A stretch of DNA of 64,000 nucleotides from an uncultured Bacteroidales bacterium (GTDB lineage: Bacteria > Bacteroidota > Bacteroidia > Bacteroidales > VadinHA17): NCBI GenBank assembly GCA_963750735.1, contig CAVVRY010000018.1, positions 10,751-74,750 of the forward strand. Direction: 5' to 3'. Shown one piece after another: positions 20,433-43,360 of the stretch. The number at the start of each line of letters is the position of its first letter. Within the stretch, counting starts at the first letter, position 1. The notes beneath the pieces are model-generated. The model saw only the letters and a program-made list of their open reading frames with translations. It was not told where the DNA came from and did no database searches. Both the position numbers and the translations under genes were made by a program.

Positions 20433-22625
20433 TTATTTACTTATAATTAATTTTCCTGAACTGACCAGGTCTTCTGAAGCAACTCTTACCATATATATAC
20501 CTTTTGGAAGACCGCCCAAGTCAATTATTTCCTTGGCCTCGTTGGGATTAAGTTGCACCGAGTAAATTATCTGTCCCTGCAAATTATAAATCTCTATCTT
20601 CATATTGTTATGAACTGGGTTAATAAGCTCTATAGTCAATAGGCCACTTGTTGGGTTCGGATATAAGCTTATGATATCATCCAGCACAATAGATTCAACA
20701 GGCAACTGTAAAACAGTTATAGTATCCGAAAAGGCTACATCACCACAGTTTTCATTGTATGAGGTTAGAGTTACAATATAATCACCTGGACTTGAATATG
20801 TGTGAACCGGATTGGCTTCTGTGCTTGTTTTTGTATCGCCAAAATCCCATAGGTATGAATCAGAATTAAGAGAAGTATTTATGAAACTAATTTCCATTGC
20901 ATTATGATTGAAGTCGAATCCTGGTACGGGAGATTCCCTTTTAACAATATCAGGATAACCAACAGACTTTGTATTACTGCAGTTTTGATCACTTACTAAT
21001 TTAACCTCATATGTACCCTGATCGGAAACAGAAAGTGTATATGGGCTTTGATGAATATTTTCAACTGTCTTAGGGTTTGAGTCATCATTTGTATATGTAA
21101 TAGACCAGGGTGAAGAGCCTGTAAGATCAATGATCAGATCTGTGCTCTGATCCTCACAGATCAAAACTGTAGCATTTCCAATTGTGATAGTTGATGTAGG
21201 TAAAGAATTCATCGTAACCTCGGCTGTTCCGGTGTAAATGCTTCCGGAGCAACCACCACCTTCCAGAGCAACCACTTCGTAAAGTCCTGCTTCTGAAACC
21301 TTAAGCAGGTAGGGATTATTTGTTGTAGTTTCCGTTTTTGGATCAGATCCATTCTTAGTATAGGTAAAGGTCCAGGGAGGTAGTCCTGTAAAACTTATTG
21401 CTATATCAGTTGATTCTCCGTCGCATATTGCTACCTCCCCATTTGAAATATTGGAAGTAGGAGGATCATTATTTACTTCAATTTTTGTTTTTCCTGTGAA
21501 ACAGGTGCCTGCAGAGTTGGCATCATTGAGAGCTGATACTTCATAGGTCCCAGGTTCAGAAACCGTTAAAACATATCGATTCTCTATTATGTTATTAACC
21601 TCTACCGGGTTTAACCCGTCCACCGTATAGATGAATGTCCAGGGCGCTGTTCCGGTGAATTCAATTTCAATATTCGTGCTTTCTCCCTGGCAAATGATAG
21701 TATTCAGGCTATTCATTTTTGCTGTTGGTAAAGCACTGTTAATGCCATACACATCAAATGCTGAATTATTCAATGAACTAATTAGTAGCTGATTATGGGA
21801 ATTTGAAACAATATCGAGAGGTACATTCAATTGGCCTTCTGTACTTCCAAACTCACCAAACCGGGTAATATACGATCCATTCTGATCGAATATGCTTATT
21901 TGCGCCTGAAATGGATCAGTAACAAATATATTTCCACAATTGCCTGTGGTAATACCCTGGATTCTGTAAAACTCACCTTCTCCATTTCCATGTTTTCCAA
22001 AGCTGCCAATTAATGTTCCATCAAGATTGAATATCCATACCTTAACTTCAGGATTAAATCCGGTGCCCAATCCCCCATGTTCTGCAACCAGTAAAGTATT
22101 ATTATTCGGGTTGTATGCTATTCCGGTTGGGAAAACTAAAATTCCTTCACCAATTACACGTATTACATTTGCTGAAAGATCAAGAACAATTACTTTTTTT
22201 AACTCACTATCTGCCACGTACAAAAGGCCGTCAGCATCAAATGCCATTGAATTTGGGAATAGTGTTCCTGAATAAAATTCGGTTAAGTTCCCATCTGGCT
22301 CAAATCTATAAATGTGGCCCGTTTCATCAGATCCGATGAACAGTTGATTGTTTCTGTTAACAGCAAGAGAAAGAGGTGAGATTTCCGGATATTGGGTAGC
22401 TAGTAAATTCCCGGAAGGATCAAATTTCAATATACGTTTTTCATTTACATCTGTCAGATAAATATTATCGAAATGGTCAACAGCCATTCTTACAGGAGCA
22501 TTTATTCCATTTTCAATACGGGATATATGAACAATATCCTCAGGAGCGACCTGAGAATATATGATTTTAATGGATGCAAGCACTATGATCCAAAGAAATA
22601 GATTTTTCTTTAAAAAACTTTTCAA
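20433..22625 (-). CDS. NHL-repeat beta-propeller, 3 Ig-like repeats, PKD domain and T9SS type A C-terminal domain
   Basis: NHL blades (FPNSMAFDADGLLYVAD, LVFPTGIAY, GQLNVPLDI); three repeats of ICxGESTxIxIxFTGxxPWTFxYT; PKD SYLWDFGD..NPVHTYSSPGDYIVTL; CTD LYPNPTSG..IEIYNLQGQ..LPKGIYMVRV..KLIISK. Confidence 0.88.
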   Translation of the reverse strand: MKSFLKKNLFLWIIVLASIKIIYSQVAPEDIVHISRIENGINAPVRMAVDHFDNIYLTDVNEKRILKFDPSGNLLATQYPEISPLSLAVNRNNQLFIGSDETGHIYRFEPDGNLTEFYSGTLFPNSMAFDADGLLYVADSELKKVIVLDLSANVIRVIGEGILVFPTGIAYNPNNNTLLVAEHGGLGTGFNPEVKVWIFNLDGTLIGSFGKHGNGEGEFYRIQGITTGNCGNIFVTDPFQAQISIFDQNGSYITRFGEFGSTEGQLNVPLDIVSNSHNQLLISSLNNSAFDVYGINSALPTAKMNSLNTIICQGESTNIEIEFTGTAPWTFIYTVDGLNPVEVNNIIENRYVLTVSEPGTYEVSALNDANSAGTCFTGKTKIEVNNDPPTSNISNGEVAICDGESTDIAISFTGLPPWTFTYTKNGSDPKTETTTNNPYLLKVSEAGLYEVVALEGGGCSGSIYTGTAEVTMNSLPTSTITIGNATVLICEDQSTDLIIDLTGSSPWSITYTNDDSNPKTVENIHQSPYTLSVSDQGTYEVKLVSDQNCSNTKSVGYPDIVKRESPVPGFDFNHNAMEISFINTSLNSDSYLWDFGDTKTSTEANPVHTYSSPGDYIVTLTSYNENCGDVAFSDTITVLQLPVESIVLDDIISLYPNPTSGLLTIELINPVHNNMKIEIYNLQGQIIYSVQLNPNEAKEIIDLGGLPKGIYMVRVASEDLVSSGKLIISK

Positions 22626-22782: not shown

Positions 22783-24465
22783 CTAGTAATTTTCAGGATT
22801 GTGTTCTTTTCCATGGCAGGTTAAGAAGCAGCGGCCCCTAAAATTTCCCTGATCTTCAAAATAAAGCCGCCCCTGGCTGTCTGCACTTACAATACTTAGA
22901 TCAAAATTTATCAGGTGAGAATTGTTTGAACTGTTTCCCTGAGTGTTACTGATTCCATGTGGATCATGACAAACATTGCAGGGTGTATTTTCTTCTCTAA
23001 TATGCATGTTGTGATCCTTGAACGACTGATTGTTCAAAATTGAATTACGATTGTGGCAAGAGTAGCAAAGTTCATAACTCAATGAAGACTCGATAGTATT
23101 ATCTGCTTTATCATACCTATATTTTAATATTGCAGGATAGATTGATCCATGCGGTCCAGCCGGTGAGTCAGAACCATCGCTTGCGTGGCAATCGGAACAA
23201 TAGATTTGACTCGCTTCTGTTAAGGGTGAAATAAGGCTGGGAACATTTGGATTTATACCTGTGCTTACCACCGGATGAAAGGAAGGATTGCTTGTGTCAA
23301 ATTCTAGTCGAACATTGTTTTGTTCTAATTGCCGGGAAGTATTTCCTGCGGGTTTTAATGGGCTGTCTGCATGACAACGGAAACATATTTCATATTCATA
23401 TTGGGCTGGGAATATGGGTATTCCTGAACGGTTTATTCCTTTCACTCCATCAATGAATCCATTCACATTGGGTGCTACTGCTGAAAGATTCCGAACAGCA
23501 TGTGGATTGTGACAGTCTTCGCATTCGACATGTAAATTAAGAGAAGTAAAATCCTCCATTGGATCGTGCTGCAAATTGTATGCATAAACATTATGCGAGT
23601 ATGTTTTTACCAGCTGCGACTCAATATTTGTTTCTGCCACATTTCCATTGTGACAATACAGACAATTCTCTTCCTCAGCCAGATAATTCATCAGCCGTGG
23701 TTTGCCCCCGGCAGTATGAGGATTGTGACAATTTTCACAGGCATTTTCGGAGACATTATCAAAATTGGTATGCGGCCATGGATTTGTTCCTGAATCATTC
23801 CAGTTAGCGGTTGAGGTATTGTGACTGGAAGTGCTCCAATAGTTCCTGTTGTGGCAATAAAAACAAAGATCAGAGAACCTGTTGGTAACTACTAAAAAGT
23901 CATCAAGTAATTCAGAATGTGGATCATGGCAGGAGGTACACTGGACTTTCTCGTTTTCAAGGCTTACCGGATCAAGGATTGTTTCAGGGTCTTTTAGTTG
24001 TCCATCCATACTTGCAATTGAAGCATTATAAACAAATGAAATAGGATGATCATCTGATAAATCGGTTGAAAGGTTGCTTCTGCCTTGAGGCATGCGGGTG
24101 ATACCTCGTCCAAAACCAATGTGGGTCGATCTACTCCGAATATTTCCCAGAGCAGTGGTACCATCATGACAGGAAAGACAAAGAATTGAACTACCATCAG
24201 GTTGACCAGGAATTGCATCAATCGTCGAACTATTGTATAAAGTATAAGTTCTACCCTGGTCATTCCTATTCCATAAGGGTCCCTTGGGGCCCCGCCTGCT
24301 GTGAGAAGTGTGACAAAAAATACAGGTTTGAGATTCAGATGAAGCCTTTATATTTCCAATGCCCTGTGCAGATAAATTGTGTTTACTATTACGAAGAATT
24401 TGTGTGTGAGAGTCAATGGGTATGCAAAACAAATACATTACAAAAATGATTCGGAAATGCTTCAT
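22783..24465 (-). CDS. Dodecaheme cytochrome c with N-terminal OmcE-like domain
   Basis: 11 CxxCH plus terminal CFLTCH; N-terminus SKHNLS..CIFCHTSH..PLWNR..YTLYNS..LCLSCHDG..LSDDHPISF..CTSCHDPH parallels the 35331-35927 protein. Confidence 0.9.
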   Translation of the reverse strand: MKHFRIIFVMYLFCIPIDSHTQILRNSKHNLSAQGIGNIKASSESQTCIFCHTSHSRRGPKGPLWNRNDQGRTYTLYNSSTIDAIPGQPDGSSILCLSCHDGTTALGNIRSRSTHIGFGRGITRMPQGRSNLSTDLSDDHPISFVYNASIASMDGQLKDPETILDPVSLENEKVQCTSCHDPHSELLDDFLVVTNRFSDLCFYCHNRNYWSTSSHNTSTANWNDSGTNPWPHTNFDNVSENACENCHNPHTAGGKPRLMNYLAEEENCLYCHNGNVAETNIESQLVKTYSHNVYAYNLQHDPMEDFTSLNLHVECEDCHNPHAVRNLSAVAPNVNGFIDGVKGINRSGIPIFPAQYEYEICFRCHADSPLKPAGNTSRQLEQNNVRLEFDTSNPSFHPVVSTGINPNVPSLISPLTEASQIYCSDCHASDGSDSPAGPHGSIYPAILKYRYDKADNTIESSLSYELCYSCHNRNSILNNQSFKDHNMHIREENTPCNVCHDPHGISNTQGNSSNNSHLINFDLSIVSADSQGRLYFEDQGNFRGRCFLTCHGKEHNPENY

Positions 24466-24467: not shown

Positions 24468-25547
24468 TTACTGTTTGTTTACTAATTGAAATATTTGAAT
24501 TCTAGAGTTGTAGGTATCAGCAACATAAATATAATCATTTTCATCAATAAAAATCCCACCCGGCATCCAGAATTGTTCCTTTCCGTGTCCCTGGGAGCCA
24601 AAATAATGTAAAAAGTTACCTTCCCTGTCATAAATTTGGACCACATGATACAGGGCATCTGCTACATAAATATGTCCGTATGAATCGGTTGCAACACCCT
24701 TGGGTCGGGCGAAATACCCACTGGCATCACCAATTTCCCCAAACACAGATATAAATTCTCCATTTTTATCGAAAATCTGAACCCTGAAATTCATTGAGTC
24801 GACAATATATACATTACCAGAAATGTCTATCCAAATAAAGGTTGGATAATTAAATTCTCCTGGACCACTACCCCTTTTACCAATCTTCCTTATCACTTCA
24901 CCCTTTTGATTTAACAATGCTATACGATGGGAATGGGTTTCTACCACCCATATCTCTTTATTTGCAGCAGACCATGCTATTCCGGTTGGTTGGTCCAGTT
25001 TTAGGGAATCATTTAGTTTCTTTAGATTTTTTCCCTCTTTTGAAAGAACAAAAATTTGATTTAACCGGGAATCAGTAAATAGGAGCTGTTCTCCCGGGAT
25101 AGCACAGATACCAGCCAAAGAAGGATATATTTTGTTTTCTTTTCTCAATGCCAATGGAACTTCACTGGTCCCTTCAGAGTTTCTTATTATCAATCCGGTA
25201 CCCTGATCTAAAATCCAGAAGTTGTTGGGATCTGTTCCAAAAATGGAAAATGGCTTACTTATTTCTACTTTCTTTTTTCCTAGAATTATCCCGGCCATTT
25301 TTTCCTTAAATGCCCTATTTTGTTTGTTGTCTTTTGAAGGAAATTCCCCTATCCATTGAACAGAATACAATTTTGCTTCTTGGCTAGTTAGGGCATTCAT
25401 TTGTCCTTTGGTTACAAAGAATGGCAACAAAAAGAGAACAAGCAGAAAAATGGCAAATGCTGTACCATGCAATTCGCTGGAATACTGAAAGTTAATAGTG
25501 TGTTTTAAAATTTGCATTTGATTCATTACAAAAGAGAGATCATGCAA
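24468..25547 (-). CDS. NHL-repeat six-bladed beta-propeller protein
   Basis: Repeats GSGPGEFNYPTFI..GNVYIVDSMNFRVQIFD, GYFARPKGVATDSYGHIYVAD, QFWMPGGIFID..IYVADTYNSRIQIF. The true start is probably downstream of 25547. Confidence 0.9.
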   Translation of the reverse strand: MHDLSFVMNQMQILKHTINFQYSSELHGTAFAIFLLVLFLLPFFVTKGQMNALTSQEAKLYSVQWIGEFPSKDNKQNRAFKEKMAGIILGKKKVEISKPFSIFGTDPNNFWILDQGTGLIIRNSEGTSEVPLALRKENKIYPSLAGICAIPGEQLLFTDSRLNQIFVLSKEGKNLKKLNDSLKLDQPTGIAWSAANKEIWVVETHSHRIALLNQKGEVIRKIGKRGSGPGEFNYPTFIWIDISGNVYIVDSMNFRVQIFDKNGEFISVFGEIGDASGYFARPKGVATDSYGHIYVADALYHVVQIYDREGNFLHYFGSQGHGKEQFWMPGGIFIDENDYIYVADTYNSRIQIFQLVNKQ

Positions 25548-26345: not shown

Positions 26346-26378
26346 AATCCTTTGTCAATCTGGCAAAGGATTTTTTTT
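26346..26378 (+). terminator. Rho-independent terminator after the c554-like gene
   Basis: AATCCTTTGTCA-ATC-TGGCAAAGGATT hairpin followed by a T-run. Confidence 0.75.
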
Positions 26379-26534
26379 AATTCAAACTTTAAGTAATCTT
26401 CCTTTGGATTGGGTAGTAAATTTTATTCATTTTAAATATGTATTAAACAATCCCAAAATAAAGAACTACAAGCTTCCGTTTCAAAATAAATCCGTATTTT
26501 CGGGCCGATTAAATAATATGAAAAAAATATAAAA

Positions 26535-27963: not shown

Positions 27964-28829
27964 TTATTGATTTAAAGTTACTGTTTTTTTGTAATAATTT
28001 TTCCACCGTTTTTTAAGTTTTCCTGACGCTTGATGAGCAAGCTCAGGAGTCAACATATCACAACTTAAGTGTGGTCTTTTTCTATTATACTTTTCTATTG
28101 ATTTTTCTAATTGTAAAGTTGTTAGGTTTTGATACTGATTTAGATACTCATCCTTTAATATTCCATTTACTCTTTCAGCAATAGCGTTTTCCAGGGGATC
28201 GCCTTTTTCTGTCATGCTTATATGAATGTTGTTTTCTTGAAGCACCTTTATATACTCTTTGCTGCAGTATTGTATTCCCCTGCCAGGAGGGATGATTAGT
28301 CATGTAATAGGTTGACGGTTGTTTTTAAGAGCGTCCTGCAATGAGTTTACAGCATGCATGCTATCGAGGGTATTAGCCAGCTTACAACCTATGATCTTCT
28401 TAGAATAAGCATCTGTAATCAGGAATAGGTATATGAACTCATTACCGGATCTTTTATAGCTTATATCGCTAACCCAGATCTGGTTAGGAATCCGGGTCAT
28501 ATCCTTGAAAAGGAAAGGTATTTTCTATATACATGGTTGTGAAAAATTGTTGTAGTATATCTTCTTTTTCTTTTGGTAACTTTTAGATTATTAGGTGCCA
28601 TCAGGTCAAACAAAGTATCCCTGCCCATTTTTATGTTGGACCTCTGCAGTTCAGGTTTGATTAAATGATATATCTTTCTTGTACCCATTCTGGGATGATC
28701 CTTTTTGATACTTAACACCATTTGATAAACGATATGGTCTTCAAAAAGCATCTTTTGAGTTGCTTTTAAATACTTATAAAATGCTTGTCTGGATAAACCA
28801 AACAGTCTGCATATCCTTTCCAGACCCAC
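27964..28829 (-). pseudogene. IS3-family OrfB DDE transposase, split into three frames
   Basis: CRLFGLSRQAFYK, PNQIWVSDISY..LITDAYSKKIIG and ISMTEKGDPLENAIAERVNGILKDEY lie in different frames. Confidence 0.82.
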
Positions 28830-28846
28830 TGTAGGATATACTTCTT

Positions 28847-29200
28847 TTATTTCTTGGACTGTTTGGTGTCTGGCTTTTTTCTTATTGGAACTTTTAATTG
28901 CTCCTCAGCAATATCAATCATCTTAGAGTAACCAAAAGAACGAATCTGTTCGTCCTCAAGCTTTCTCTCAAGCTCTTTGATTCGCTTAATCAGCTCTTTT
29001 TTATCAGATTTACTGTAATCCATAAGGCTTTGTAAATATGGGTCCGACCCTTCAGATTTACGAATCCATTTTAAAATAGTAGTAGAACCTCCAATTCCAT
29101 ATTTTCTCCTGGCTGCTTCCTTTGAGATCTGGCCAGACTGAACTTGGAATACGATCTCTCTTTTTAAAGACTCACTGTAATAATAATTTAATCCTGACAT
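28847..29200 (-). CDS. IS3-family OrfA (HTH transposase subunit)
   Basis: YSESLKREIV..SKEAARRKYGIGGSTTILKWIRK helix-turn-helix plus coiled coil. Confidence 0.85.
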   Translation of the reverse strand: MSGLNYYYSESLKREIVFQVQSGQISKEAARRKYGIGGSTTILKWIRKSEGSDPYLQSLMDYSKSDKKELIKRIKELERKLEDEQIRSFGYSKMIDIAEEQLKVPIRKKPDTKQSKK

Positions 29201-29462: not shown

Positions 29463-31136
29463 TTATTCAACCAAAACTCGATCGTATTTTAGCTCCCCGT
29501 GGCAACCTGGTAAACAGGAACCCCCGTTTTCCATTGGTTTGTAGTTCATTTGCATTTCCCATTTTCCAAAGGGAACGACATCCCTGATCAAATGTTCATT
29601 TATCGAGGCGTGTACATCATGACACATGCTGCAACTCCGGCCACGGGTGCCATTTATATGGAAATAATGGAGGTTCTGACTGCCATTCCTGAAGTTGGTG
29701 CCCGAGGCTGATGCATCTTCCTGTAATATTGCCCCATCGTGGCAGTCAAAGCAAAGAGCAAAATTCTCAGGCTTTGCTCTAACATAATAGCTAGCAGGAA
29801 AGTTATTCTTTAGCATAGCTGATCTGCCGGTACTGTGGGCACTATGGCAGGTAGAACAGCCATCCATTTCAATGGCGGCATGTATATACTGGCTCTTGGT
29901 AATTTTCTGGCCAATATTCTCCACAAGGGTGGAATCTGTACGATAGGTTTTACTATGGCAACCCAGGCAGAGTTCCTGTTTGTTAGCAGTGAGCAAAGAA
30001 CTCTGGTCTGAAGCATGTGGGTTATGACAACTTGCACATTCTCCGTTTTTTACCGGTGCATGTGAAAATTCACCACTACTTTCTTCATGACAATTTAAAC
30101 AAAGTCCTGGCATTTCCTGTGTCAACAACTTTGCCTGCTCTGAGCTATGGGGACTATGACAGGTGGAGCATTCATCCAGAATAGCATGGACGGAGGACGC
30201 TCCCTCTGATGTATTTTCATGGCATTCATAACACATGCCTGGTTGTGCGGTTTTAACCAGGGCAGGATTATCCGACTCATGTACTTCATGACAATCGGAA
30301 CAAGAACCTTCAGTAAAAGGATAATGAACTGTGTGACCCTCAGGAACGGATGCATCATGACAGCTAACACACAATTCTTCTGTTGCAACATTTAGAAGAG
30401 AAGAGTTCTGTGCCGCATGAGGATTGTGACAACCTGCGCACTCTCCCACGGCTACCGGGGAATGAATATTATTCTTTGAGAATTCTTCGTGGCAGTTAAA
30501 GCATAAACCGGGCATTTCCTGAATCAACAACTTGGCTTGTTCTGCACTATGGGAACTATGGCAGGTAGAACATTCTTCGAAAACTGCATGTATGGAGGAG
30601 GCTCCTTCTGAGGGGTTCTCATGGCACTCAAAACAGAGAGCTGGCATAGCACTTTTAAGCAGGCTACCATTGTCTGACTGGTGTGAGTCATGACAGGAAG
30701 AACATTCTCCTTCGGAGTAAGGGTAATGGCCAACATTATTTTCGGGTACCCCTGCCTCATGGCATTCTGCGCATATTTTTCCTGCTTCAACATTTAATAT
30801 GGATGAAAATTCAGAGCCATGTGGAGCGTGGCAGGCCAAACACTCACCCTCACCGGCGGGATAATGAATGTTTTTCTTTGAATATTCATCATGACACATG
30901 TAACATAGAGCGGGAATTGCTTCAGTAAGTTTGAACCCCCCTGTATTAGGGTGCCCTTCACCGGTAGACTCATGACAGGTCTCGCAACCCATTTCCATTA
31001 CAGCATGCATATTCTTATATTCCATTAAATCACTATGGCATTCTGTACAGTTCTGTTGTAGCTGTATTTTAGTTGTGCTAAAATTTAAGCTTAGAAATCC
31101 AATAAAAACCAATCCGGAAAACACTAAATACTTCAT
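29463..31136 (-). CDS. Periplasmic 21-heme cytochrome c (doubled-CXXCH repeat type; ExtA/DmsE-like conduit subunit)
   Basis: 20 CxxCH plus terminal CLPGCH; repeated HxPxxxGxCxxCHxxHxS..LL..LCxxCH units; C-terminal TNFRNGSQNLHYFH..CSMCHDVHAS. Confidence 0.92.
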   Translation of the reverse strand: MKYLVFSGLVFIGFLSLNFSTTKIQLQQNCTECHSDLMEYKNMHAVMEMGCETCHESTGEGHPNTGGFKLTEAIPALCYMCHDEYSKKNIHYPAGEGECLACHAPHGSEFSSILNVEAGKICAECHEAGVPENNVGHYPYSEGECSSCHDSHQSDNGSLLKSAMPALCFECHENPSEGASSIHAVFEECSTCHSSHSAEQAKLLIQEMPGLCFNCHEEFSKNNIHSPVAVGECAGCHNPHAAQNSSLLNVATEELCVSCHDASVPEGHTVHYPFTEGSCSDCHEVHESDNPALVKTAQPGMCYECHENTSEGASSVHAILDECSTCHSPHSSEQAKLLTQEMPGLCLNCHEESSGEFSHAPVKNGECASCHNPHASDQSSLLTANKQELCLGCHSKTYRTDSTLVENIGQKITKSQYIHAAIEMDGCSTCHSAHSTGRSAMLKNNFPASYYVRAKPENFALCFDCHDGAILQEDASASGTNFRNGSQNLHYFHINGTRGRSCSMCHDVHASINEHLIRDVVPFGKWEMQMNYKPMENGGSCLPGCHGELKYDRVLVE

Positions 31137-31147: not shown

Positions 31148-33118
31148 TTAAAATTTCCTTGTAACTCGTAAGAAAAATCCGTTTAATATAAATTTGCTCG
31201 TTACGTAATTACGGCTATAAAAGTCAATTCCTGCATTCAAATACAATTGACGGAAGACAGTTGAAAATTCAAGCCTGCCTGTCCACATACTGAGGTCTGT
31301 TTGGAATGCCTTATGTCTTAAGTAACCTACTTCCAATTCGATTCGCGTTTGGGCCTTAAAGACATAAGCCGCCCTACCAGAAATATTCCCAAATCTTTGT
31401 TGATGGTTATCCTCAATATATTTGTAATCTCTCAGAGAGGCATTTAGTGAGAGAATTAACTTATTATTGAAATCACCCTGCAGGTTTAGATAATAGCGAA
31501 TCATACGGTAGGGTATTATATTGCTATTGTAGTTGTCTAATTCTACACCTCCCCGAGCAAAGTTTTTTTCCAGGCGTATCCCAACTATATTTTGAGAAAA
31601 GTAGTTAAGCGTAAGAAAATCGGTTTGTTGGATATTAACATAGTTTTGAAATCGGCCCATGTAATATATCTCAAGTAAGCGATCAAAGAGAAGAAAGCCC
31701 AAATAAACATTATGATTATTAAGATCATACTTGTAACTTCCTGGTTGAATGACAGTATAGTCAACGAGTACTGAACCCCCATTGGGAATCAGGCCTCCTA
31801 ATAATCTCTGGACTTCAATATAATTATTTCTTTCAATAAGTATATAATCCAGATTTAGCTGATAAATTATAGTTCCGGAGATGTCTTTTAATACTACAGA
31901 ATTGATATCTGCATTTGGTTTCCCAAGCAATTCAATCACTCCATCTGTTAATGTATGCCCCTCATTTAGGACTTGCAATGTAGCAGTTTCGCCATCCATC
32001 TCAAGGTGATGCCGAAAATAATGGTAAGATATGTTTAAACGCCCAAAAGGAATTTTTTTAGTATAGTCAAAACCAAATCCTCCTTTGAAATTTGATTCAT
32101 AGTAAACGGTTTGATTTGTGTTGTAATATTCCAGGAAGATGTTGCTTCTAAGGCTTAGAAATAATTCTTGATGCAGGTCGACACCCACCCTGTTTTGGGC
32201 AATATCCTGGAAACTTTCTTTTAACTTGTAAAAATTGTAATGAGCTGCAAGCTGGAAATTTGAAGGAAGATTAAACAATATACGTTCGTTTATATCAAGC
32301 CGTTCAAAATCAAATGTACCAACCTGAGAATAATAAGAAATTCGGGAATTGAAATTATAGTTTTTCGCAGAATCGAGAAATACCTGGTTGTTCAGGTTAA
32401 CACGGTTTATAACATTTCGGTTGGTGTCAAGTGCTGAATGAGTATAAGTAAAATCATCATGACCATAAATTAGTTCATTTTTATCACGCATCCCAAATGA
32501 TCTGTCAATCCGACCTTCGAATGTACTTCTATCGTTGGTGAAAACTCTTCCTGTTTCGGTTTCCCTCTGATTCCACTTTAAATCATTATACCTAAGAGTG
32601 AGAGGTACATGTTTATTCTTTAATAGAAGGATGCCTCCCCATTGTTGGCTTTTTGAACGAACATTTGTAAGGTTTTCCCGATTGAAATAACTTTGGTGAT
32701 AATTATAAAATGGAGTTATTGTTACAGTTTTACCGTTGAATAATGTAGATCTAATTCCTATTTTACCCAATGTACGTACTTCGGATCGATTCGGTATTGT
32801 CAGATATTTTTCATTCCTAGTTTCAGGATTGAATTCAAAATCTAAATCCAGAAGCACCAAGTCAGGAAGCCAGAGAAAAGAACTGGAATGTAATTTAATT
32901 CCTGCAATTCCATATATACTTTGCTGTTTTTCTTCAGTAATTCCAATCGTGCTATTTTGCTGGCGATAGAAACCTTCTAGGCTAACTTCACCGGTAAATG
33001 CCAGTTGATGCCAGAAGCCCAGTGAAGAAAGGGAACCCTGAGGGAGGACTTCCAGGCATAATGGGAGAATTAAAAGAATCAATATGTAGCGAAAGTGTTT
33101 CACGCAATTGTTAATCAA
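31148..33118 (-). CDS. Large outer-membrane beta-barrel protein (putative porin of a porin-cytochrome conduit, ExtB-like)
   Basis: Signal peptide; many alternating aromatic/hydrophobic strands rich in Y, N, R; C-terminal FLRVTRKF; lies between two multiheme genes. Confidence 0.72.
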   Translation of the reverse strand: MINNCVKHFRYILILLILPLCLEVLPQGSLSSLGFWHQLAFTGEVSLEGFYRQQNSTIGITEEKQQSIYGIAGIKLHSSSFLWLPDLVLLDLDFEFNPETRNEKYLTIPNRSEVRTLGKIGIRSTLFNGKTVTITPFYNYHQSYFNRENLTNVRSKSQQWGGILLLKNKHVPLTLRYNDLKWNQRETETGRVFTNDRSTFEGRIDRSFGMRDKNELIYGHDDFTYTHSALDTNRNVINRVNLNNQVFLDSAKNYNFNSRISYYSQVGTFDFERLDINERILFNLPSNFQLAAHYNFYKLKESFQDIAQNRVGVDLHQELFLSLRSNIFLEYYNTNQTVYYESNFKGGFGFDYTKKIPFGRLNISYHYFRHHLEMDGETATLQVLNEGHTLTDGVIELLGKPNADINSVVLKDISGTIIYQLNLDYILIERNNYIEVQRLLGGLIPNGGSVLVDYTVIQPGSYKYDLNNHNVYLGFLLFDRLLEIYYMGRFQNYVNIQQTDFLTLNYFSQNIVGIRLEKNFARGGVELDNYNSNIIPYRMIRYYLNLQGDFNNKLILSLNASLRDYKYIEDNHQQRFGNISGRAAYVFKAQTRIELEVGYLRHKAFQTDLSMWTGRLEFSTVFRQLYLNAGIDFYSRNYVTSKFILNGFFLRVTRKF

Positions 33119-33439: not shown

Positions 33440-33997
33440 TTAATTAAACATTAACCTATCCTTTCCTCCATGGGGATTGTGGCATTCGATGCAATTCGTA
33501 TCTTCTATTCCTTCATGAATTTTTGTATTAAAACCTTCCCCCGGAACATGACAATGTAAACAGAGTTCCTGCCCACTGCGTTTCAGTAAATTTTCTTTTG
33601 CATAATGGGGCTGATGACAGGCCGTGCAATAGCCTCCGGCAACCGGGCCATGAACAGTTTTATAGCGCTCTTCGAAATTTTCATGGCACTGGTAACAGAG
33701 TTTGGGCTGAGGGAGAATGTATCGGCCCATCGTATTTTGGTCATGGCAGCTTGAACAATCTTTTTCCAGGTATGGAATGTGATAAATAGTCTTTGGTGCG
33801 TTTGGAATTTCAGTTTCCTGGACTATTATATCAGGACTGTTTAAAGAATCAATACCGATGGTCTGCTCCAGTAGCTCATCACCAGGGACTCCGTCAAAAA
33901 AGAAATTCATGGCCTTTTTCCCTGCTTCAGGGGAACAACCACCTAATAGGATAAGAATGAAAATGATAATTGAGCTTACTGACCAAGCATTATTCAT
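33440..33997 (-). CDS. Pentaheme cytochrome c lipoprotein (ExtC-like)
   Basis: Lipobox LGGC; FFFDGVP; CSSCH, CYQCH, CTACH, CLHCH, CIECH; directly upstream of the barrel gene. Confidence 0.88.
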   Translation of the reverse strand: MNNAWSVSSIIIFILILLGGCSPEAGKKAMNFFFDGVPGDELLEQTIGIDSLNSPDIIVQETEIPNAPKTIYHIPYLEKDCSSCHDQNTMGRYILPQPKLCYQCHENFEERYKTVHGPVAGGYCTACHQPHYAKENLLKRSGQELCLHCHVPGEGFNTKIHEGIEDTNCIECHNPHGGKDRLMFN

Positions 33998-35060
33998 TTA
34001 TAGATGTTTTTTCTTCAACAAATCCGTATACCCCTATTTTATTGGGTCCAAATTGATTTGTCACATAGATTAAGAATTTCAGGTTAAAATCCTTATAAAC
34101 ATAGGGTTTGAAATAATCAAGGTTATCATAGCTGATGGCAACTCCGGCTGGAAGACTCATATTTCCATGTCCTCCAAAAAACATCAATAATGCACCACTT
34201 TTATTAAAGATTTGAACATTTTCAAAAGCTGCATCTACTGCATACAGGTTTTCATTTTTGTCAAGAGCAATGCCTTTTGGGCGTGTAAATTGGCCAAATC
34301 CCTTTCCATAATTCCCAGTTATACCCCTAAAACTTCCATCTGGTGAAAAAGATTTAATATTAAATCCACCAAAATCTGTAACATAAATATTTTCATTTGA
34401 AGAAGAAATATTCACAGGCTGATTTAGGTATCCCTTCGACTCTGGATTTAAGTTTGGGAAAGAATCAATCAGGTTATAATCCAGTAAATCGTATACAAAT
34501 ATTTTATGTCCACTAACATTGGCCACATATATTTTTTCATCCTTCACCCATACACCTGTTGGTTTAAAATTCCCAGTTGCCCCCAGGGCAGTGACATACT
34601 TTAACATATGGTCGAATACTACAACCTGTTTTCGTTCCCCATCAGCAACAAAGAGATAATGAAATTCATCAACAAAACAATTTAGTGGAAGTTTTAGTTG
34701 GCCTTTGCCAGTAGGTATAAAGTATTCGAAGGTTCCTTTTTTCAAATTAATAATTTCCAATCCGCCAATTCCCGGGTCGCAGATATATATACTATTTTTT
34801 GTTACCTGAATTCCATATGGCCTGTTTATGGGTCTCGGTTCTTCTTCACCAAGGAAAAACTTTTTAAATCCGGATTGGGGTCTGGCAATGTTTTCTGAGC
34901 TGTTAATATAAGTTAAAAATTGTATTCTTGCAGAATCCGGAGGGGAGGGAAATAGTATAAGTTCTTCAGCAGTTGGAGATTTGATTATTTTCTTTGTGCA
35001 GGCATCAAAAGTAAATGCCATGATCAAAAGAATGAATAATGTAGAAAGGCTTCGATTCAT
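33990..35060 (-). CDS. NHL-repeat beta-propeller lipoprotein
   Basis: Lipobox FDAC; FPSPPDSARIQFL; NHL blades GQFTRPKGIALDKNENLYAVDAAFENVQIF; overlaps the pentaheme gene by 8 nt. Confidence 0.87.
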   Translation of the reverse strand: MNRSLSTLFILLIMAFTFDACTKKIIKSPTAEELILFPSPPDSARIQFLTYINSSENIARPQSGFKKFFLGEEEPRPINRPYGIQVTKNSIYICDPGIGGLEIINLKKGTFEYFIPTGKGQLKLPLNCFVDEFHYLFVADGERKQVVVFDHMLKYVTALGATGNFKPTGVWVKDEKIYVANVSGHKIFVYDLLDYNLIDSFPNLNPESKGYLNQPVNISSSNENIYVTDFGGFNIKSFSPDGSFRGITGNYGKGFGQFTRPKGIALDKNENLYAVDAAFENVQIFNKSGALLMFFGGHGNMSLPAGVAISYDNLDYFKPYVYKDFNLKFLIYVTNQFGPNKIGVYGFVEEKTSINE

Positions 35061-35280: not shown

Positions 35281-35304
35281 AAAAGGGCAGCCGAAACCAC
35301 CCTT
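35281..35304 (-). terminator. Terminator hairpin after the omcE-like gene
   Basis: Minus strand AAGGGTGGT-TTCG-GCTGCCCTT-TT, a UUCG-loop hairpin with G-U pairs. Confidence 0.65.
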
Positions 35305-35330: not shown

Positions 35331-35927
35331 TTATTTAAGGTGACAGGTCAGACAAAGTGCACTACCTCCATTATCCAATCGAAGAAAATTGCCAAATTGA
35401 TTATCGTGCACATCATGACATGAAGCACACTCCATCCTTTCTGAAAACAACATATCTGCATCTATGGTTCCACCAAGACCTGAATTCACAGCAGAAGGAT
35501 CTGCCAGTCCATCATCAATTGTAGAGAGAGCAGTATTGTAGTCAAAACTTATAGGATGGTCATTATCTAAACTTGTACCAACTAAAGCGCTCCCAGTCAT
35601 AAAATTTGTTCCAGTATTACCTCCAAAACTTTCAAGAGCAACAGTACCATCATGACAACTGAGGCACAATAATGAATTTGAGCCTGGTTGTGCAACGGTG
35701 GCATCTAATGTTGGCGAAGTATACAAAGTAAATGTTGCGGTAGTAACGTCATGATTCCATAGCGGAGCATTGGCCACAGCAGTACCATTGTGGGGAGTAT
35801 GGCAGACTATACAAATTTCACCTCCTGACCAGGTGTCACCACTAAAGTCATGACCAGAACCTGTAATTTGACCAAATGCTATTACTGTCAAGCACATCAA
35901 AAAAGAAGCAATTAGTATTTTTTTCAT
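35331..35927 (-). CDS. omcE: OmcE-like tetraheme cytochrome c (candidate cytochrome nanowire subunit)
   Basis: Signal AFG/Q; ordered motifs SGHDFS, EICIVCHTPHN, PLWNH, TFTLYTS, SLLCLSCHDG, VGTSLDNDHPISF, MECASCHDVHDN, FLRLDNGGSALCLTCH match Geobacter OmcE as I recall it (not aligned computationally). Confidence 0.85.
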   Translation of the reverse strand: MKKILIASFLMCLTVIAFGQITGSGHDFSGDTWSGGEICIVCHTPHNGTAVANAPLWNHDVTTATFTLYTSPTLDATVAQPGSNSLLCLSCHDGTVALESFGGNTGTNFMTGSALVGTSLDNDHPISFDYNTALSTIDDGLADPSAVNSGLGGTIDADMLFSERMECASCHDVHDNQFGNFLRLDNGGSALCLTCHLK

Positions 35928-36089
35928 AAACGAAAGGTTAAGTTGATGATTTATTAAAATTATTTGAAAATCATTACAGCACTAAGACTGAAGGGCATAT
36001 TTATTAAATATAGATATATTATTTTCTCAAGATTCTACCCAAAATATGTTTTAGAACATATGTATATAGGTAATATTACCTTGTCCGAA

Positions 36090-36103
36090 TTGATATATAT
36101 CAA
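36090..36103. promoter_or_regulatory. Perfect FNR box upstream of the omcE-like operon
   Basis: TTGAT-ATAT-ATCAA, about 160 nt upstream of the ATG at 35927. Confidence 0.75.
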
Positions 36104-36364
36104 TAGAAAAAACGTAGATATACACAAGGAAGGCTGATAAAATATATTCATATTATTGATAATCAGCTATAAAATGAATGAGATTAATTGAAAAAGGATA
36201 TTGTCATCTGAAAATCAGTTTAATATGTTCAGTGGAAACTAGGCGTCATATTTTTGAGCAATGATGGGCAAAAAATAAGAATTTCTATCTTTTCAAATAT
36301 TGGGATGGGTATTGCTATTTTTCCGGCAAACGACTTAGTTTTGAAAATGAAACTCATTTATTAA

Positions 36365-36515
36365 GCTCCAAAAATCAATATTCAAAAAACAAACAATAAT
36401 TAATGTTCAAATAATCAAAATTCAAAAGGAATCACTTATTATATTAAAGTCTTTCTTTTAATAATTGAGTTTTGAGATTTATTTGGGTTTTGGCTATTGT
36501 AGTTTGGTATTTAAA
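36365..36515. repeat. Low-complexity inverted repeat (CAAA-rich arm and TTTG-rich arm)
   Basis: CCAAAAATCAATATTCAAAAAACAAACAA... is mirrored by ...TTGAGTTTTGAGATTTATTTGGGTTTTGGCTATTGTAGTTTGG. Confidence 0.5.
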
Positions 36516-36607
36516 TGATGATCCTTAAAATACTGGAGCAGCTGCAATACCTTGCAGCCTGGTATACCAAGGAATAGTCCGTCCGATCACTCAGTGTGAC
36601 TTTAATT

Positions 36608-39391
36608 CTAGCCAAATATGAAGGCATAAATAAGAAGGATAACCATTAAAAACCCAATACCCAGGAAGATAAAACCAAAGGTTTTGATTAAGCGCATCCA
36701 GTCTTTAGAATAGGTTTTCTCAACTACCAGTTCTTTTAACTTACCTGATTCTTTTAATTCTTCGTATTCTCTGGGTCTTTCGTGCTTAAAAGTTTCCAAT
36801 GGCATATGTCCTGTGAAAATTACAGTATCCATTGGGAAGGCTTCAGGGCGGAAATGGGTATTGAAGAAGTGAACCGTAAAGATAAATCCTACGGCAAGAA
36901 GGGCCTCATCACTGTGAATGATCTGAGAAATGTTAATGACCCAACCAGGTAAGAACTTGGTAAAGAATACCGGGAACCAAAGTACCAGACCGCTAAAACC
37001 AATCACCGCAACCCCCCAGAATACAGCCATATAGTCAAATTTCTCCCAGTACGTCCATCTGCCATAATTAGGGCGTGGTCCCCGTCCTAAAAACCATTTT
37101 ATTGTGGCTCCAAAGTCTCTAATATCCTGCTTGTTGAACATCAGTGAATTTCTACCGAATACGAATTCAACAAAGGACTTGCGTCGTTTGATTTTTTGCC
37201 GGATCAAATTAAATAGATGAAACGCAAAGTAACCAAAGGTAATAATGGCACCGATGCGGTGCAATACTCCTGCTCCCTGAACTCCACCTACAATTGACGC
37301 AATTGTTTTGGCCCATTCCATATGGGCGAATTTCAGCATCATACCGGTCAGGGCCAGCAGAATGAAACTTACTATAACAAATAAATGAGTAATTCTTTGA
37401 TTTCTGCTAAACCTTCTGAAATAGGTGGCAGGGCCATCAGTTTTTACATGATGGTGCTTTTTCCTCTCTTTAAATGATCTTGGTAACCACAACAGGATAT
37501 GCAAACCAAAAAAGCCAAACACTCCTAATAAAAGGGATGTCATAAACCAATAGGTATATTTTAGTGCAGGTGCATCATCGTGGGTGGAATGATTCAGGTA
37601 TCCGGTAAACCTGTAGTTGGCACCTGTATGACACCGGGAACAGGTTGAAACAATATTGTTTTCACCGACCATTGAATTGGGGTTGTTCACCTTTAATACA
37701 TTGTGTGCGCCATGGCAATCGGAACAACGGGCCGCCTCAAGATAGCCTAATTGGTAAGCCTTACCATGATAAGTATCCATATAGGTTTCAGAGAGTTCTT
37801 CATGACAGGCCCCACACTGAACGGTAACTTCCGTCATAAACTCATCTTGTTTACTTGGTGAAATCACGTGTGCTGAATGGCAATTCACACAGGTTGGCAG
37901 CTTTACTAAAGTATCAGTCCTGGTAATTGAATGATCACTGGTAATATATTCGTCATAGATTCCTTTATGGCAGGTAGCACAGGTAGCAGGAATATTAGAA
38001 GGGTGAACAGATGAACGTTCATCCTCTTCCTTTAGCATAAAATGAGTTGTATGGCAATCAGTACATACGGCACTTACGCTTAAGCCTTTTTCTATTAAGC
38101 CTTTTCCATGTACACTCTGAGAATAATCCAAATAAGCGTCTTTCTCTTTGAGGTCGGCATGTTCAGTTGCCTTTCCATCTTCCTTATGACATGAACCACA
38201 CAATTCAGGGATTAAAGTATGATAAGTTGGTGAGGTATCGTCATATCTCGATTGTGTTTTGTGGGTTCCGTGGCAATCGGTACAATACGGTGCATTTTCA
38301 TCATTTGCATAATATGCCTTTCCGTGTCCGCTATCAAAATACAGGTCAAAGACTTCTGAATGGCAGTTTGAGCAATCGACCTTGCCCGCTGTTTCACAGG
38401 CTGAATTACTGGTATGAGGTTTAATATCGGTATGGCATTTAGCACATGGGATATTTTTATGCACAGAAGTAGATAAGTCGGCCCGATTTACAAACATTGA
38501 AACTTGTTCCCCATCAATAACTTTATGTACGTCATCCTTTTCATGACAACTAAGGCATGTTTTATCGGCAATATTGGCTTCCACAAAGGTCACATTCTCA
38601 CGATGAGGTGGATGGCAACTATTACAAACAGGAATGGAATTTGGATCTTTCTCCCACAATTCTCCTCTTATTACCTTTTTGTGAACTTCTTCAATTTTTG
38701 TATGGCACTTAAGGCAGGTTTTTGCAATATTGTTTGGAGATACAGTTGAATTGCGACTGGTATGAGCCAATACCATATGATTTCCATGGCAATCATTACA
38801 GGTGGCCGTTACAATCAATCCTTTGTTAAATAATCCTTCACCATGAATTCCCTGGGTATAGTTCTCTATAATATTGTGCTCTGAAACGTCATATCCACGT
38901 GAAACAGGAGCACCTTCCTTATGACATTTACCGCAAAGAATGGGAATATTGGTTTTATAGGTGCGTGAATTTAATTCAGTATAGTGCAAAATATCATGCC
39001 TTCCATGACATTCTTTGCAATCCGGTGCGTGGCTGTCGCCCATTTTCAATGCCTGGCCATGTATTCCCGCAAAAAACCGGCGATCTGGTTCTTCATGACA
39101 GGTACCACAACTTACCTTAGCCAGATTTTCCGCATGCGGATAATCAGCCACGGCGGCATCAGCATGGCACAAGGCACAGTCAACATCTTTATGAACTGAT
39201 TTGTCCAGGATGGCGGTGTTTACAAATAATGAAACAGTACGACCATTTCTTACTGTACTCAGGTCAGGATCCTCATGACACATGAGGCAGTCATCCCTTG
39301 ATTGTGAATTTGCGTTAATTATAAATAAAAACGATAGAATAAATGCCGATAAAAGACTTTTAGTCAGGCTAAAGCATTGGTTTATTCTCAT
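36608..39391 (-). CDS. CbcL-like fusion: 19-heme periplasmic cytochrome c domain plus membrane cytochrome b domain
   Basis: 19 CxxCH, then six hydrophobic helices with [59 protein letters not shown] (diheme b ligands). Confidence 0.9.
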
Positions 39392-39486: not shown

Positions 39487-39500
39487 TTGATATTTATCAT
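39487..39500. promoter_or_regulatory. FNR-type box upstream of the cbcL-like gene
   Basis: TTGAT-ATTT-ATCAT (1 mismatch), about 95 nt upstream of the ATG at 39391. Confidence 0.6.
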
Positions 39501-41899: not shown

Positions 41900-42598
41900 G
41901 TGTTTGAGATTATAGCGAATAAAACAACCTGTAGCAACTGTGGATTTATTTCACAGGCAGCTAAATTCTTAAAGGAAGCAGAGCTTAAAGAACTAGCACA
42001 GGGAACTGTGGATGTAAGCCTTAAAAGAGGGGATAAACTTTTTGTGGAAGGGCTTCCTCACTCGCATGTAATATATTTACGGGAAGGATTTGTAAAAGTT
42101 CATATGACTGGCCCAAATGGCCGGGATCAGATATTGAAATTTGCCAGACCTGGAGCCTATCTTGGGATACAATCTCTGATGGGTTCGGATGTAAACAGGT
42201 TTTCTGCGACCGCCCTTGAAAATGTACGTTTATGTTATATTAATGGCAACACTTTCAAGAATCTTATTCAAACTAATGCTTCTTTTTCAGCCGAAATTTT
42301 GACATTTTTGTGTAAAGATGAGTTGAATTATTTTGAAAGATTTGTTAGCCTTCAGCAAAAAAATAATAGCGGTAAACTAGCAGATGCTCTTTTATATTTT
42401 TCAGGTAGAGTTTTCGAAAGTGATACATTCACTCTACCCTTAACCTATGTTGATTTAGCTGCCTTAACTGGAACAACCAGAGAAAGTACTACCCGTTTGA
42501 TAAAAGATTTCGTTAAAGGCGGAATTATTGAAGTAAACAGCCGGGAAATAAGAATCATTGACAAAGGCATCCTTACAAAAATCAGTGAGAACGGTTAA
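41900..42598 (+). CDS. Crp/Fnr family transcriptional regulator (N-terminal CxxC)
   Basis: TTCSNCGF; cNMP-like domain; HTH LPLTYVDLAALTGTTRESTTRLI. Confidence 0.9.
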   Translation: MFEIIANKTTCSNCGFISQAAKFLKEAELKELAQGTVDVSLKRGDKLFVEGLPHSHVIYLREGFVKVHMTGPNGRDQILKFARPGAYLGIQSLMGSDVNRFSATALENVRLCYINGNTFKNLIQTNASFSAEILTFLCKDELNYFERFVSLQQKNNSGKLADALLYFSGRVFESDTFTLPLTYVDLAALTGTTRESTTRLIKDFVKGGIIEVNSREIRIIDKGILTKISENG

Positions 42599-42620: not shown

Positions 42621-43307
42621 TTAACCTTTATTACTTATCTGACTCAGGAGGTCCTGCTTTAGAATTTCAATAGAATTTCCGGAAACGGTTATAACATCCT
42701 CATTATCAAAAGATTTAAGAATTTTGAAAGTACTTTCTTTCGACATGCCTGCCATCTCAGAAAGCTCCACCTTTGAGATATTCAAAGTAAATGGATTGGC
42801 TTCATAAATTTCTTCTGAGAGGTACAATAAAGCCTCCGCTATTTTGCCCTGATTGTTTTTCTGGTTTAGATTCAATAATTTGTTTAAAGTTTGAATCAAA
42901 TTCTTCTGTGAAAGCCGCATGAAAGCCTTTGTAAAAATCATATTTGATTCCAACACCTTGATAAAAGCCATTCTTTCAATAAAAGATACAGAAGATTCTT
43001 CTATGGCCGTTACCGAGTAATGGTGGATATTGTCTCCAAGTAAGCCGGCTCCTGTAATATATTCAATAGGTTTGATGAGTCGGATGATCAGATTTCTCTC
43101 GTTTGAACCTGTCATATGGATTTTTGCCATCCCTGTAGTAAAGGACAAAAGATGAGTACAGGCGGTACCTTGTTTAAATATGGTTTCCCCGGGTTTGTAT
43201 ATTACCTCATGTTTGTTTTCATTAATCAGGTTTAACTCTTCTGTAGTTAGAAGATCAAAAACATTGGCATTGATTGAGTGATGAGATCCGTGTCCGTGAT
43301 TGGCCAT
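42621..43307 (-). CDS. Crp/Fnr family transcriptional regulator (His-rich N-terminus)
   Basis: MANHGHGSHHS start (ATG at 43307); YKPGETIFKQG; HTH ISKVELSEMAGMSKESTFKIL. Confidence 0.88.
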   Translation of the reverse strand: MANHGHGSHHSINANVFDLLTTEELNLINENKHEVIYKPGETIFKQGTACTHLLSFTTGMAKIHMTGSNERNLIIRLIKPIEYITGAGLLGDNIHHYSVTAIEESSVSFIERMAFIKVLESNMIFTKAFMRLSQKNLIQTLNKLLNLNQKNNQGKIAEALLYLSEEIYEANPFTLNISKVELSEMAGMSKESTFKILKSFDNEDVITVSGNSIEILKQDLLSQISNKG

Positions 43308-43346
43308 AAAATTCAGATTGAAGGGTGCTAATATACACAATAACGA

Positions 43347-43360
43347 TTGATTTACATCAA
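43347..43360. promoter_or_regulatory. Perfect FNR box upstream of the third Crp/Fnr gene
   Basis: TTGAT-TTAC-ATCAA, 40 nt upstream of the ATG; a weaker TTGAC-ATTA-ATTAA lies at 43375-43388. Confidence 0.72.

Follow-up and report, generated by a model that had tools for sequence, protein, structure and literature searches.

An OmcE-family tetraheme cytochrome gene, encoding a candidate nanowire subunit, within a multiheme electron-transfer gene cluster of a Bacteroidota genome

The tetraheme gene and its product

A 64,000-nucleotide (nt) stretch of DNA from an uncultured Bacteroidales bacterium of the VadinHA17 lineage (GenBank assembly GCA_963750735.1, contig CAVVRY010000018.1, positions 10,751 to 74,750), hereafter the window, carries on its minus strand, at 35331..35927, a gene for a tetraheme cytochrome related to OmcE, the subunit of a cytochrome nanowire. 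The open reading frame (ORF) begins with ATG, contains four heme-binding CxxCH motifs and encodes a precursor of 198 amino acids (aa), of which about 179 would remain in the mature protein. Reading frame, motifs, matches in the PDB and an AlphaFold2 model identify the product as an OmcE-family protein and a candidate nanowire subunit. On the evidence presented here it is likely that this is a genuine OmcE-family tetraheme and that its gene provides the major subunit in a cluster of the OmcE type for extracellular electron transfer in a member of the Bacteroidota. Two further elements flank the gene: a terminator-like hairpin of 9 bp (4 of them G-C) with a 4-nt UUCG loop, at 35283..35304 on the same strand, between the subunit gene and the NHL-repeat gene that follows it, and an exact palindrome of the FNR/CRP type, TTGAT-N4-ATCAA, at 36090..36103, 163-176 nt upstream of the ATG. 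All three had been recorded in a preliminary description made from the DNA sequence, and the palindrome was found exactly where that description had placed it.

The N-terminus of the tetraheme bears a hydrophobic signal of the Sec/signal peptidase I type, whose cleavage was read by eye as A-F-G before Q20; glutamine at position +1 after signal cleavage is preferred in Bacteroidota. Neither Pfam nor NCBIfam detected a C-terminal domain of the type IX secretion system (T9SS) in the protein, and no lipobox was seen on inspection, in agreement with the preliminary description, which had reported the lack of both. Pfam matches were limited to generic multiheme models (Paired_CXXCH_1 and Cytochrome_C7), and those of NCBIfam were likewise generic. 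A chance ORF is excluded by the 5822 homologues retrieved at E <= 1e-5 in a word-indexed search in which 6104 candidates were scored.

Similarity to OmcE in sequence and predicted fold

Comparison with all PDB chains using phmmer matched the tetraheme to OmcE of Geobacter sulfurreducens (7tfs_A, E 1.3e-25, residues 6-198 against 11-232) and to OmcE of Desulfuromonas soudanensis (9yuq_N, E 1.9e-23, residues 1-198 against 1-218); the only remaining match at E <= 10 was NrfB, with an E value of 0.78. The motifs HDFS, CxxCHTPHN, PLWN, TFTLY, CLSCHDG, NDHPISF, ECxSCHxVHDN and FLR..GSxLCLxCH align in the same order as in OmcE, and in the phmmer alignment every one of them pairs with its counterpart in the G. 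sulfurreducens protein, which bears out the earlier account of a secreted 198-aa tetraheme with these motifs in OmcE order.

The predicted structure led to the same relative. An AlphaFold2 model built from a 124-row alignment reached a predicted local distance difference test score (pLDDT) of 93.6 and a predicted template modelling score (pTM) of 0.86, and when it was searched against the PDB with Foldseek, 7tfs was the sole match at E <= 10 (E 7.9e-10, template modelling score, TM, 0.63). A wide structural search independent of Foldseek, VIA-align over 48161 chains, placed 7tfs_A first with Z 15.1 (root-mean-square deviation 2.4 Å over 166 aligned residues, 42% identity in the aligned core), followed by OmcS (Z 3.9), MtrA (Z 3.7) and OcwA (Z 2.1), these four being the only chains at Z 2 or above. 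The preliminary description had named a fold unlike OmcE as one outcome that would speak against its proposal; the fold predicted is specifically that of OmcE in both searches. Sequence homology and predicted fold thus mark the product of 35331..35927 as a clear relative of OmcE.

A small protein with a Sec signal, devoid of lipobox and T9SS domain and recognized in Pfam only by generic multiheme models (Paired_CXXCH_1 and Cytochrome_C7), could also be a soluble periplasmic tetraheme shuttle comparable to cytochromes c3 or STC, its likeness to OmcE being due to shared heme packing only. We regard this as very improbable: homology to filament subunits extends over the full length at E 1e-25, no chain of c3, STC or NrfB attained Z 2 in the wide structural search, in which four chains did and OmcE came first, and in many phyla the gene is strictly linked to genes for NHL propellers and for a barrel of the outer membrane, as described below.

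With OmcE of G. sulfurreducens (7TFS) the tetraheme shares the order of the four CxxCH motifs and of four further histidines; it is shorter, with a precursor of 198 aa versus 232 aa, the deletions falling in surface loops. OmcE of D. soudanensis WTL (9YUQ), whose nanowires form anti-parallel bundles, is similarly short (218 aa versus 198 aa). The bundling loops of that protein are reportedly not conserved in its homologues (Petersen et al. 2026, PMC13712944), so the comparison carries no implication about bundling of the window protein. OmcS of G. sulfurreducens (PDB 6EF8) is a hexaheme nanowire that differs in heme number and in family, and its fold match at Z 3.9 is not meaningful. The logic of its filament is described as alike in the literature, the interfacial heme being ligated by a histidine of the adjacent subunit (PMC9473688, PMC12954529).

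Heme ligands and the contact between subunits

Conservation was assessed in an alignment of 124 rows, named A1, that comprises the query, 10 picks from the homologue search and 113 of the 150 best representatives at 50% identity. Those 113 measure 185-235 aa and contain four CxxCH motifs exactly; the other 37 were left out. In A1, H43, H92, H124, H171, H174 and H196 are invariant (124/124), H26 is histidine in 123 rows and H46 in 120. The four CxxCH motifs together with H26, H46, H124 and H174 all pair with histidines in both solved OmcE structures, and hence all eight heme-ligating histidines of OmcE are kept in the window protein. Four CxxCH motifs and four further histidines are what Petersen et al. 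2026 (PMC13712944) name as conserved features of OmcE.

The C-terminus and a set of natural fusions speak to how subunits might meet. Exactly two residues follow the last heme-binding histidine in 117 of the 124 members of A1, and 111 of these end in lysine. Five of the 150 best representatives (P0121, P0122, P0123, P0124 and P0127) are tandem fusions with two to four OmcE-like modules per chain, the longest having 1400 aa and 16 CxxCH motifs. In P0121, P0122, P0123 and P0127 the histidine of the HDxS motif of the next module lies 9-10 residues past the last heme-binding histidine of the preceding one; P0121 has one further module junction of 18 residues, and the sole spacing measured in P0124 is 7 residues, at a module junction that is uncertain. 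The window tetraheme has two residues after H196 and six from the predicted cut to H26, so that subunits abutting end to end would show a histidine spacing of 9. Both OmcE and OmcS have one heme whose ligand is a histidine from the adjacent subunit (PMC9473688, PMC12954529; Petersen et al. 2026). Given the fixed tail of two residues, the spacing of 9-10 in tandem fusions and the spacing of 9 for abutting subunits, we infer that H26 is the histidine donated to the C-terminal heme of the neighbouring subunit. Fusion spacing and fixed tail together provide an indirect argument, of the Rosetta-stone type, for a head-to-tail contact.

Two observations on the histidines weigh against a polymerising subunit or temper the evidence for it. 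First, the invariance of the CxxCH motifs is partly built into A1, because its members were selected for exactly four of them. Second, a ninth histidine, H59 (in PLWNH; codon at about 35751-35753), is histidine in 105 of the 124 rows and arginine in both solved OmcEs, 7TFS and 9YUQ. Petersen et al. 2026 argued that an OmcE-like protein with nine histidines and four hemes is self-satisfied, and would be an anchor and not a polymerising subunit; by its sequence, H59 fits this nine-histidine, four-heme anchor profile. An equivalent of H59 is also found inside the modules of the tandem fusions, which weakly argues against a capping role for it.

The gene cluster

According to the preliminary description the tetraheme gene comes first in its unit, with genes for an NHL protein, a pentaheme cytochrome and a barrel downstream, and the gene order on the minus strand agrees. 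The gene next to the subunit gene (33990..35060) encodes an NHL-repeat beta-propeller of 356 aa (Pfam NHL, DUF5128) with an N-terminus that is lipobox-like by inspection. It is followed by a gene for a 185-aa pentaheme cytochrome (33440..33997), also with a lipobox-like N-terminus and recognized by its five CxxCH motifs, by Pfam and by its conserved position, by the gene for a large beta-barrel of the outer membrane with 656 aa (31148..33118) and by that for a 557-aa multiheme cytochrome (29463..31136) with 20 CxxCH motifs, assigned by motif count and by Pfam and NCBIfam. The cluster extends further than had been recognized, to a second NHL beta-propeller gene (24468..25547, 359 aa) paired with a gene for a 560-aa cytochrome (22783..24465), both on the minus strand.

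These neighbours correspond to those of known OmcE genes. The smallest OmcE clusters of Desulfuromonadia always contain, besides OmcE itself, a large beta-barrel and two each of multiheme cytochromes and beta-propeller lipoproteins, and OmcE genes of the nanowire type were filtered by the presence nearby of both a large barrel and a beta-propeller lipoprotein (Petersen et al. 2026, PMC13712944). The window has both, with the NHL protein at 33990-35060, the barrel at 31148-33118 and the second NHL protein at 24468-25547, and its neighbourhood is a match to the published minimal type of OmcE cluster. The cluster of G. sulfurreducens likewise includes a beta-propeller lipoprotein and a large barrel. 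The common Geobacter pattern has a long block of glycosylation genes, whereas none was seen beside the cluster within the window; the cluster of D. soudanensis is of the minimal type and, as in the window, has no such block (Petersen et al. 2026).

The arrangement recurs in relatives. Comparisons of gene order were based on 80 loci (L004-L083) and on tblastn with the window proteins. Among the 54 loci having at least 6 kb of sequence downstream, 41 have an NHL gene as the immediate downstream neighbour of the subunit gene, and 28 have NHL, pentaheme cytochrome and barrel genes in the order of the window; among the 74 having at least 1.2 kb downstream, an NHL gene is present in 55. The conserved order is subunit, NHL propeller, pentaheme cytochrome, barrel of about 30 strands, large multiheme cytochrome, second NHL protein and 560-aa cytochrome. 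In the window this order is interrupted: an IS3-type transposase in fragmented short ORFs (27964..29200, minus strand; HTH, HTH_21 and rve_3 pieces) and two plus-strand genes (25793-27239) between the IS3 remnant and the second NHL gene split what relatives such as L004 have as one contiguous cluster.

Further cytochrome genes surround the cluster. Upstream of the subunit gene lies a minus-strand gene (36608..39391) for a protein of 927 aa in which a 19-CxxCH cytochrome is fused to a membrane domain of the cytochrome b561 type, plausibly a candidate inner-membrane quinol oxidase feeding the pathway, and beyond it a pair encoding a cytochrome b and a seven-heme protein (39764-41435). On the other side, the minus strand encodes an NHL-repeat protein of 730 aa (20433..22625) that carries a C-terminal sorting domain of T9SS type A (TIGR04183, 55.6 bits) and a 591-aa multiheme cytochrome with 13 CxxCH motifs (18636..20411). 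The 730-aa protein has repeated middle domains and partial homologues in L024 (48%) and L053 (40%); no other T9SS cargo was seen in the island. A membrane cytochrome of the NapC/NirT family (499 aa) and a heme-attachment protein of 1032 aa in which ResB and CcsA are fused (15462-18560, plus strand) adjoin the island at 13710-18560 on the plus strand. A scan of the whole window with Rfam at gathering thresholds gave no match.

The barrel and the conduit alternative

The 656-aa protein encoded at 31148..33118 was modelled by AlphaFold2 as a large beta-barrel (pLDDT 85.8) with about 30 long strands, by our own count from the DSSP string, and a small inserted domain at about residues 391-447; MtrB has 26 strands. 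No family in Pfam or NCBIfam covers it. Foldseek ranked MtrB from the Mtr complex of Shewanella highest among its matches (6r2q_B, E 2.1e-9, TM 0.46), and in VIA-align Cir (Z 16.0) and MtrB (Z 15.6) tie at the top of 92 chains at Z >= 8, so that its likeness appears to be generic to large barrels. It was accordingly not assigned as MtrB, as an usher or as LptD, the structural matches being generic and a Pfam or NCBIfam family lacking. In the protein atlas, the clusters of its look-alikes are unnamed, with Bacteroidota and Planctomycetota as the commonest phyla.

Porin-cytochrome conduits of the MtrCAB/Pcc type (PDB 6R2Q) also place a large outer-membrane barrel beside multiheme cytochromes, and the tetraheme could then be a non-polymeric or short-oligomeric outer-surface cytochrome docked on the barrel, as the distal part of such a conduit. 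MtrB as best Foldseek match and as joint leader in VIA-align is in keeping with this arrangement, as are the small lipobox-like cytochrome and the 20-heme cytochrome of the cluster, and the conserved ninth histidine could satisfy the open heme in cis. The barrel matches are, however, generic, as said above, and the fold predicted for the tetraheme matches OmcE in particular (Z 15.1; MtrA reaches 3.7 and OcwA 2.1). The conserved N-terminal histidine and fixed two-residue tail, as well as the tandem fusions at head-to-tail spacing, likewise tell against a conduit component; both OmcE members studied by experiment form filaments (PMC9473688, PMC12954529). Taken together, a conduit role for the tetraheme is improbable. 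NHL propellers, present in the window cluster, are not a component of Mtr. In a filament-building cluster, the ~30-strand barrel would be the obvious candidate for the export route of the subunit.

The 560-aa cytochrome

The cytochrome encoded at 22783..24465 combines an N-terminal OmcE-like module with a seven-heme extension, totalling 11 CxxCH motifs. The module, about 200 residues long, has 41% identity to the compact tetraheme (E 4.6e-34), and over residues 21-207 the protein matches 9YUQ (E 1.2e-26) and 7TFS (E 1.6e-25) in the PDB; WD40 hits obtained in the same database were discarded as noise, with 0 matched stretches. The remainder, with its seven further CxxCH motifs, matches a model for MtrC/MtrF domain II/IV. 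The module retains the N-terminal histidine (in HNLS), and in 44 of 45 homologues of the protein a histidine in an HxxS/T motif stands 9-11 residues past the fourth CxxCH of the module, which is the inter-module spacing of the natural tandem fusions. A full-length homologue occurs in 45 of the 80 loci, from many phyla, and is encoded separately from the compact gene in 42; in 39 of these 42 an NHL gene lies directly upstream of it, one such locus being that of a metagenome-assembled genome (MAG) of Geobacter sp.

Retention of the donor histidine, together with a post-module histidine at fusion spacing, would allow this protein both to plug a filament end and to cap its own heme. Tentatively, and with some doubt, it can be proposed from these sequence features that the 560-aa cytochrome is a cluster-encoded terminator or adaptor of the filament, in an assembly by 'donor-histidine' completion. 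It would plug the open heme at one end of the filament via its N-terminal donor histidine, satisfy its own last heme in cis via the post-module histidine, and extend the heme chain into the MtrC-like domain as a built-in tip or base.

The hairpin downstream of the subunit gene

The preliminary description had reported a UUCG hairpin after the stop codon and had treated it as an internal terminator separating a highly transcribed subunit gene from the genes downstream. The hairpin is present, at 35304..35283 on the minus strand, starting 26 nt past the stop. Its conservation was examined with a scan requiring a stem of at least 6 pairs (at least 3 of them G-C), a loop of 3-8 nt and no fewer than 4 T among the 8 bases that follow, which is looser than the scan applied to the window. 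A hairpin within 120 nt of the stop of the subunit gene was found in 41 of the 57 loci having the NHL gene downstream, with sequences that differ between loci; the same scan was positive after 110 of 781 other ORFs encoding 150 aa or more in those loci (14%) and in 86 of 1140 random windows. The kept position, in 41/57 loci against 14% of controls, speaks for a terminator or attenuator conserved at the point where the subunit gene gives way to the other genes of the unit.

Seen by itself, the window hairpin is less convincing, and several features of it and of its surroundings count against an attenuator. Its T tract is weak, broken by C and A; its fold is unremarkable (z -0.80, with 47 of 200 shuffles folding as well or better), and its region contains 7 terminator-like sites versus 5.7 expected. 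The comparison backs a hairpin at a position conserved among relatives; the hairpin of the window alone is not significant. The gap between subunit and NHL genes is moreover 270 nt in the window versus a median of 124 nt in relatives, and could house a separate promoter.

The FNR-type box and its candidate regulators

Exact copies of the TTGAT-N4-ATCAA box number two in the window versus 0.32 expected, a count reached by 4 of 100 shuffles. In related loci an exact box is present within 300 nt upstream of the subunit gene in 3 of 75, versus about 0.1 expected, and a box with at most one mismatch in 7 of 75, versus about 2.2 expected; at one of these, the Bacteroidetes MAG locus L014, the box is identical and sits at -150. 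The box is real and modestly enriched. Two genes of the CRP/FNR family are located 6-7 kb away, one encoding 232 aa on the plus strand (41900..42598), with Fnr as its best NCBIfam match, and the other 239 aa on the minus strand (42621..43340). The second exact box, at 43347-43360, abuts the start of the latter gene, which suggests autoregulation. Boxes with one mismatch lie at 39487-39500, upstream of the gene for the 927-aa fusion, and at 25744-25757, upstream of the second NHL unit.

Other findings do not favour oxygen-responsive control through this site. The two regulators score 62.5 and 35.2 bits with the NCBIfam Fnr model, far below its cut-off of 228 bits, so that oxygen sensing is not established. 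Most related loci have no box, 68 of 75 lacking one even when one mismatch is allowed. An FNR site is typically located about 41.5 bp upstream of the transcription start, and the distance of 163-176 nt concerns the ATG; the exact -7 motif of Bacteroidota, TAnnTTTG, did not occur in 35928-36607 on the minus strand, and no promoter was assigned there.

It is possible, though we hold it to be the weaker reading, that the regulatory part of the proposal should be replaced by a plainer arrangement: a hairpin acting as a full terminator or 3' stabiliser, a promoter for the NHL-to-barrel genes in the gap, a box that is of the CRP type or non-functional, and a transcript ratio not set by attenuation. 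The wide gap, the insignificance of the window hairpin, the scores of the regulators and the 68 loci devoid of a box are what this arrangement would lead one to expect. It accounts less well for a hairpin whose position is kept in 41 of 57 loci when its sequence is not, for the location of both exact boxes in promoter-side intergenic DNA of the island, for the one-mismatch sites before two more cytochrome units (39487 and 25744) and for the identical box at -150 in L014. The identification of the tetraheme as an OmcE-family protein is a separate matter from this alternative, which concerns regulation only.

Distribution of the family

In an exhaustive search of 50%-identity representatives, relatives of the tetraheme numbered 4995 at E <= 1e-3, of which 482 at E <= 1e-30, and with one genome per species a relative was encoded at 577 of 597 pattern-matched stretches among the matches listed, 80 loci being retained for comparison. 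The related loci bear the labels Chlorobiota/Ignavibacteria, Calditrichota, Bacteroidota, Gemmatimonadota, Omnitrophota, Verrucomicrobia, Planctomycetota, Deferribacteres, Gammaproteobacteria, Desulfobulbaceae, Geobacter, Acidobacteriota and others. A cultured carrier among them is Carboxylicivirga marina N1Y132 (L065, 50% identity). A search of sequencing runs listed no RNA data set; the 20 matches listed were all DNA metagenome contigs sharing less than half of the words sampled.

The genome to which the window belongs (4.68 Mb, 96.85% complete) has 55 matches to the T9SS type A sorting domain and 6 to the SusD family, a marker that among 14 control genomes gave matches only in Bacteroides thetaiotaomicron; it is a Bacteroidota genome. 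Within a sample of 401 Bacteroidota genomes, 7, including that of the window, match the tetraheme at E <= 1e-20, and besides the window genome only two (G139 and G241) have the compact form, each with a paralogue of about 570 aa just upstream. Across phyla the subunit is 55-66% identical; the Chlorobiota and Gemmatimonadota provide examples, with one MAG each at 66% and 63%, respectively. Such identity between phyla, yet with rare and patchy occurrence in its own (7/401), suggests that the whole electron-transfer module has spread laterally.

Filtered OmcE homologues have been reported in five phyla, Thermodesulfobacteriota, Pseudomonadota, Aquificota, Campylobacterota and Nitrospirota (Petersen et al. 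2026, PMC13712944), and a preprint on peat (10.64898/2026.05.27.727921) mentions OmcE-like cytochromes in clusters of Acidobacteriota and Verrucomicrobiota. No link of OmcE clusters to Bacteroidota was found in the literature searched, whose supplementary tables were not covered and may list more taxa. The window adds a complete cluster of the OmcE type from the Bacteroidota, a phylum outside the five reported, and the OmcE family is much larger than reported in the literature examined.

Discussion

The tetraheme encoded at 35331..35927 is a candidate filament subunit, with polymerisation, surface location and conductivity predicted by homology to OmcE. From the genes of the island a pathway can be drawn in outline. 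The precursor would be exported by Sec and cut before Q20, and its hemes would be attached by the fused ResB-CcsA protein (15462-18560). The subunit of about 179 aa would then cross the large barrel, or dock at it, and the NHL propellers would serve as assembly factors. Subunits would stack head to tail, His26 completing the bis-histidine ligation of the C-terminal heme (C192-H196) of the neighbour, so as to form a continuous chain of hemes. Electrons would pass from quinol through fusions of cytochrome b and multiheme domains and through the periplasmic multiheme proteins of the island. Expression would probably be switched on by a regulator of the CRP/FNR type, and the hairpin, being leaky, would let transcript of the subunit gene exceed that of the genes downstream.

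In pili, as in the window cluster, the gene for the major subunit comes first, a hairpin stands after it and the genes for assembly lie further downstream. The resemblance of the window cluster to chaperone-usher pili is one of mechanism only, there being no relation in sequence or fold; FimD aligns with the barrel at Z 11.0, a low rank. A donor strand completes the neighbouring subunit in those pili and a donor histidine would do so in the arrangement proposed here, each system has an outer-membrane barrel, and a distinct terminating subunit is possibly common to both. An analogy between OmcE and chaperone-usher pili was raised by Petersen et al. 2026 (PMC13712944).

How the expression, assembly and termination of such filaments are brought about is posed as a question in the 2026 literature (Petersen et al. 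2026, PMC13712944). The conserved hairpin, the tandem fusions and a 560-aa cytochrome that may cap itself bear on these processes. Cytochrome nanowires have been solved from few organisms only, and the cluster described here widens the range of hosts, and with it the circle of probable builders of conductive protein wires among bacteria. The presence of the cluster in C. marina N1Y132 would allow a direct test of whether fermentative members of the marine Bacteroidota make conductive wires.

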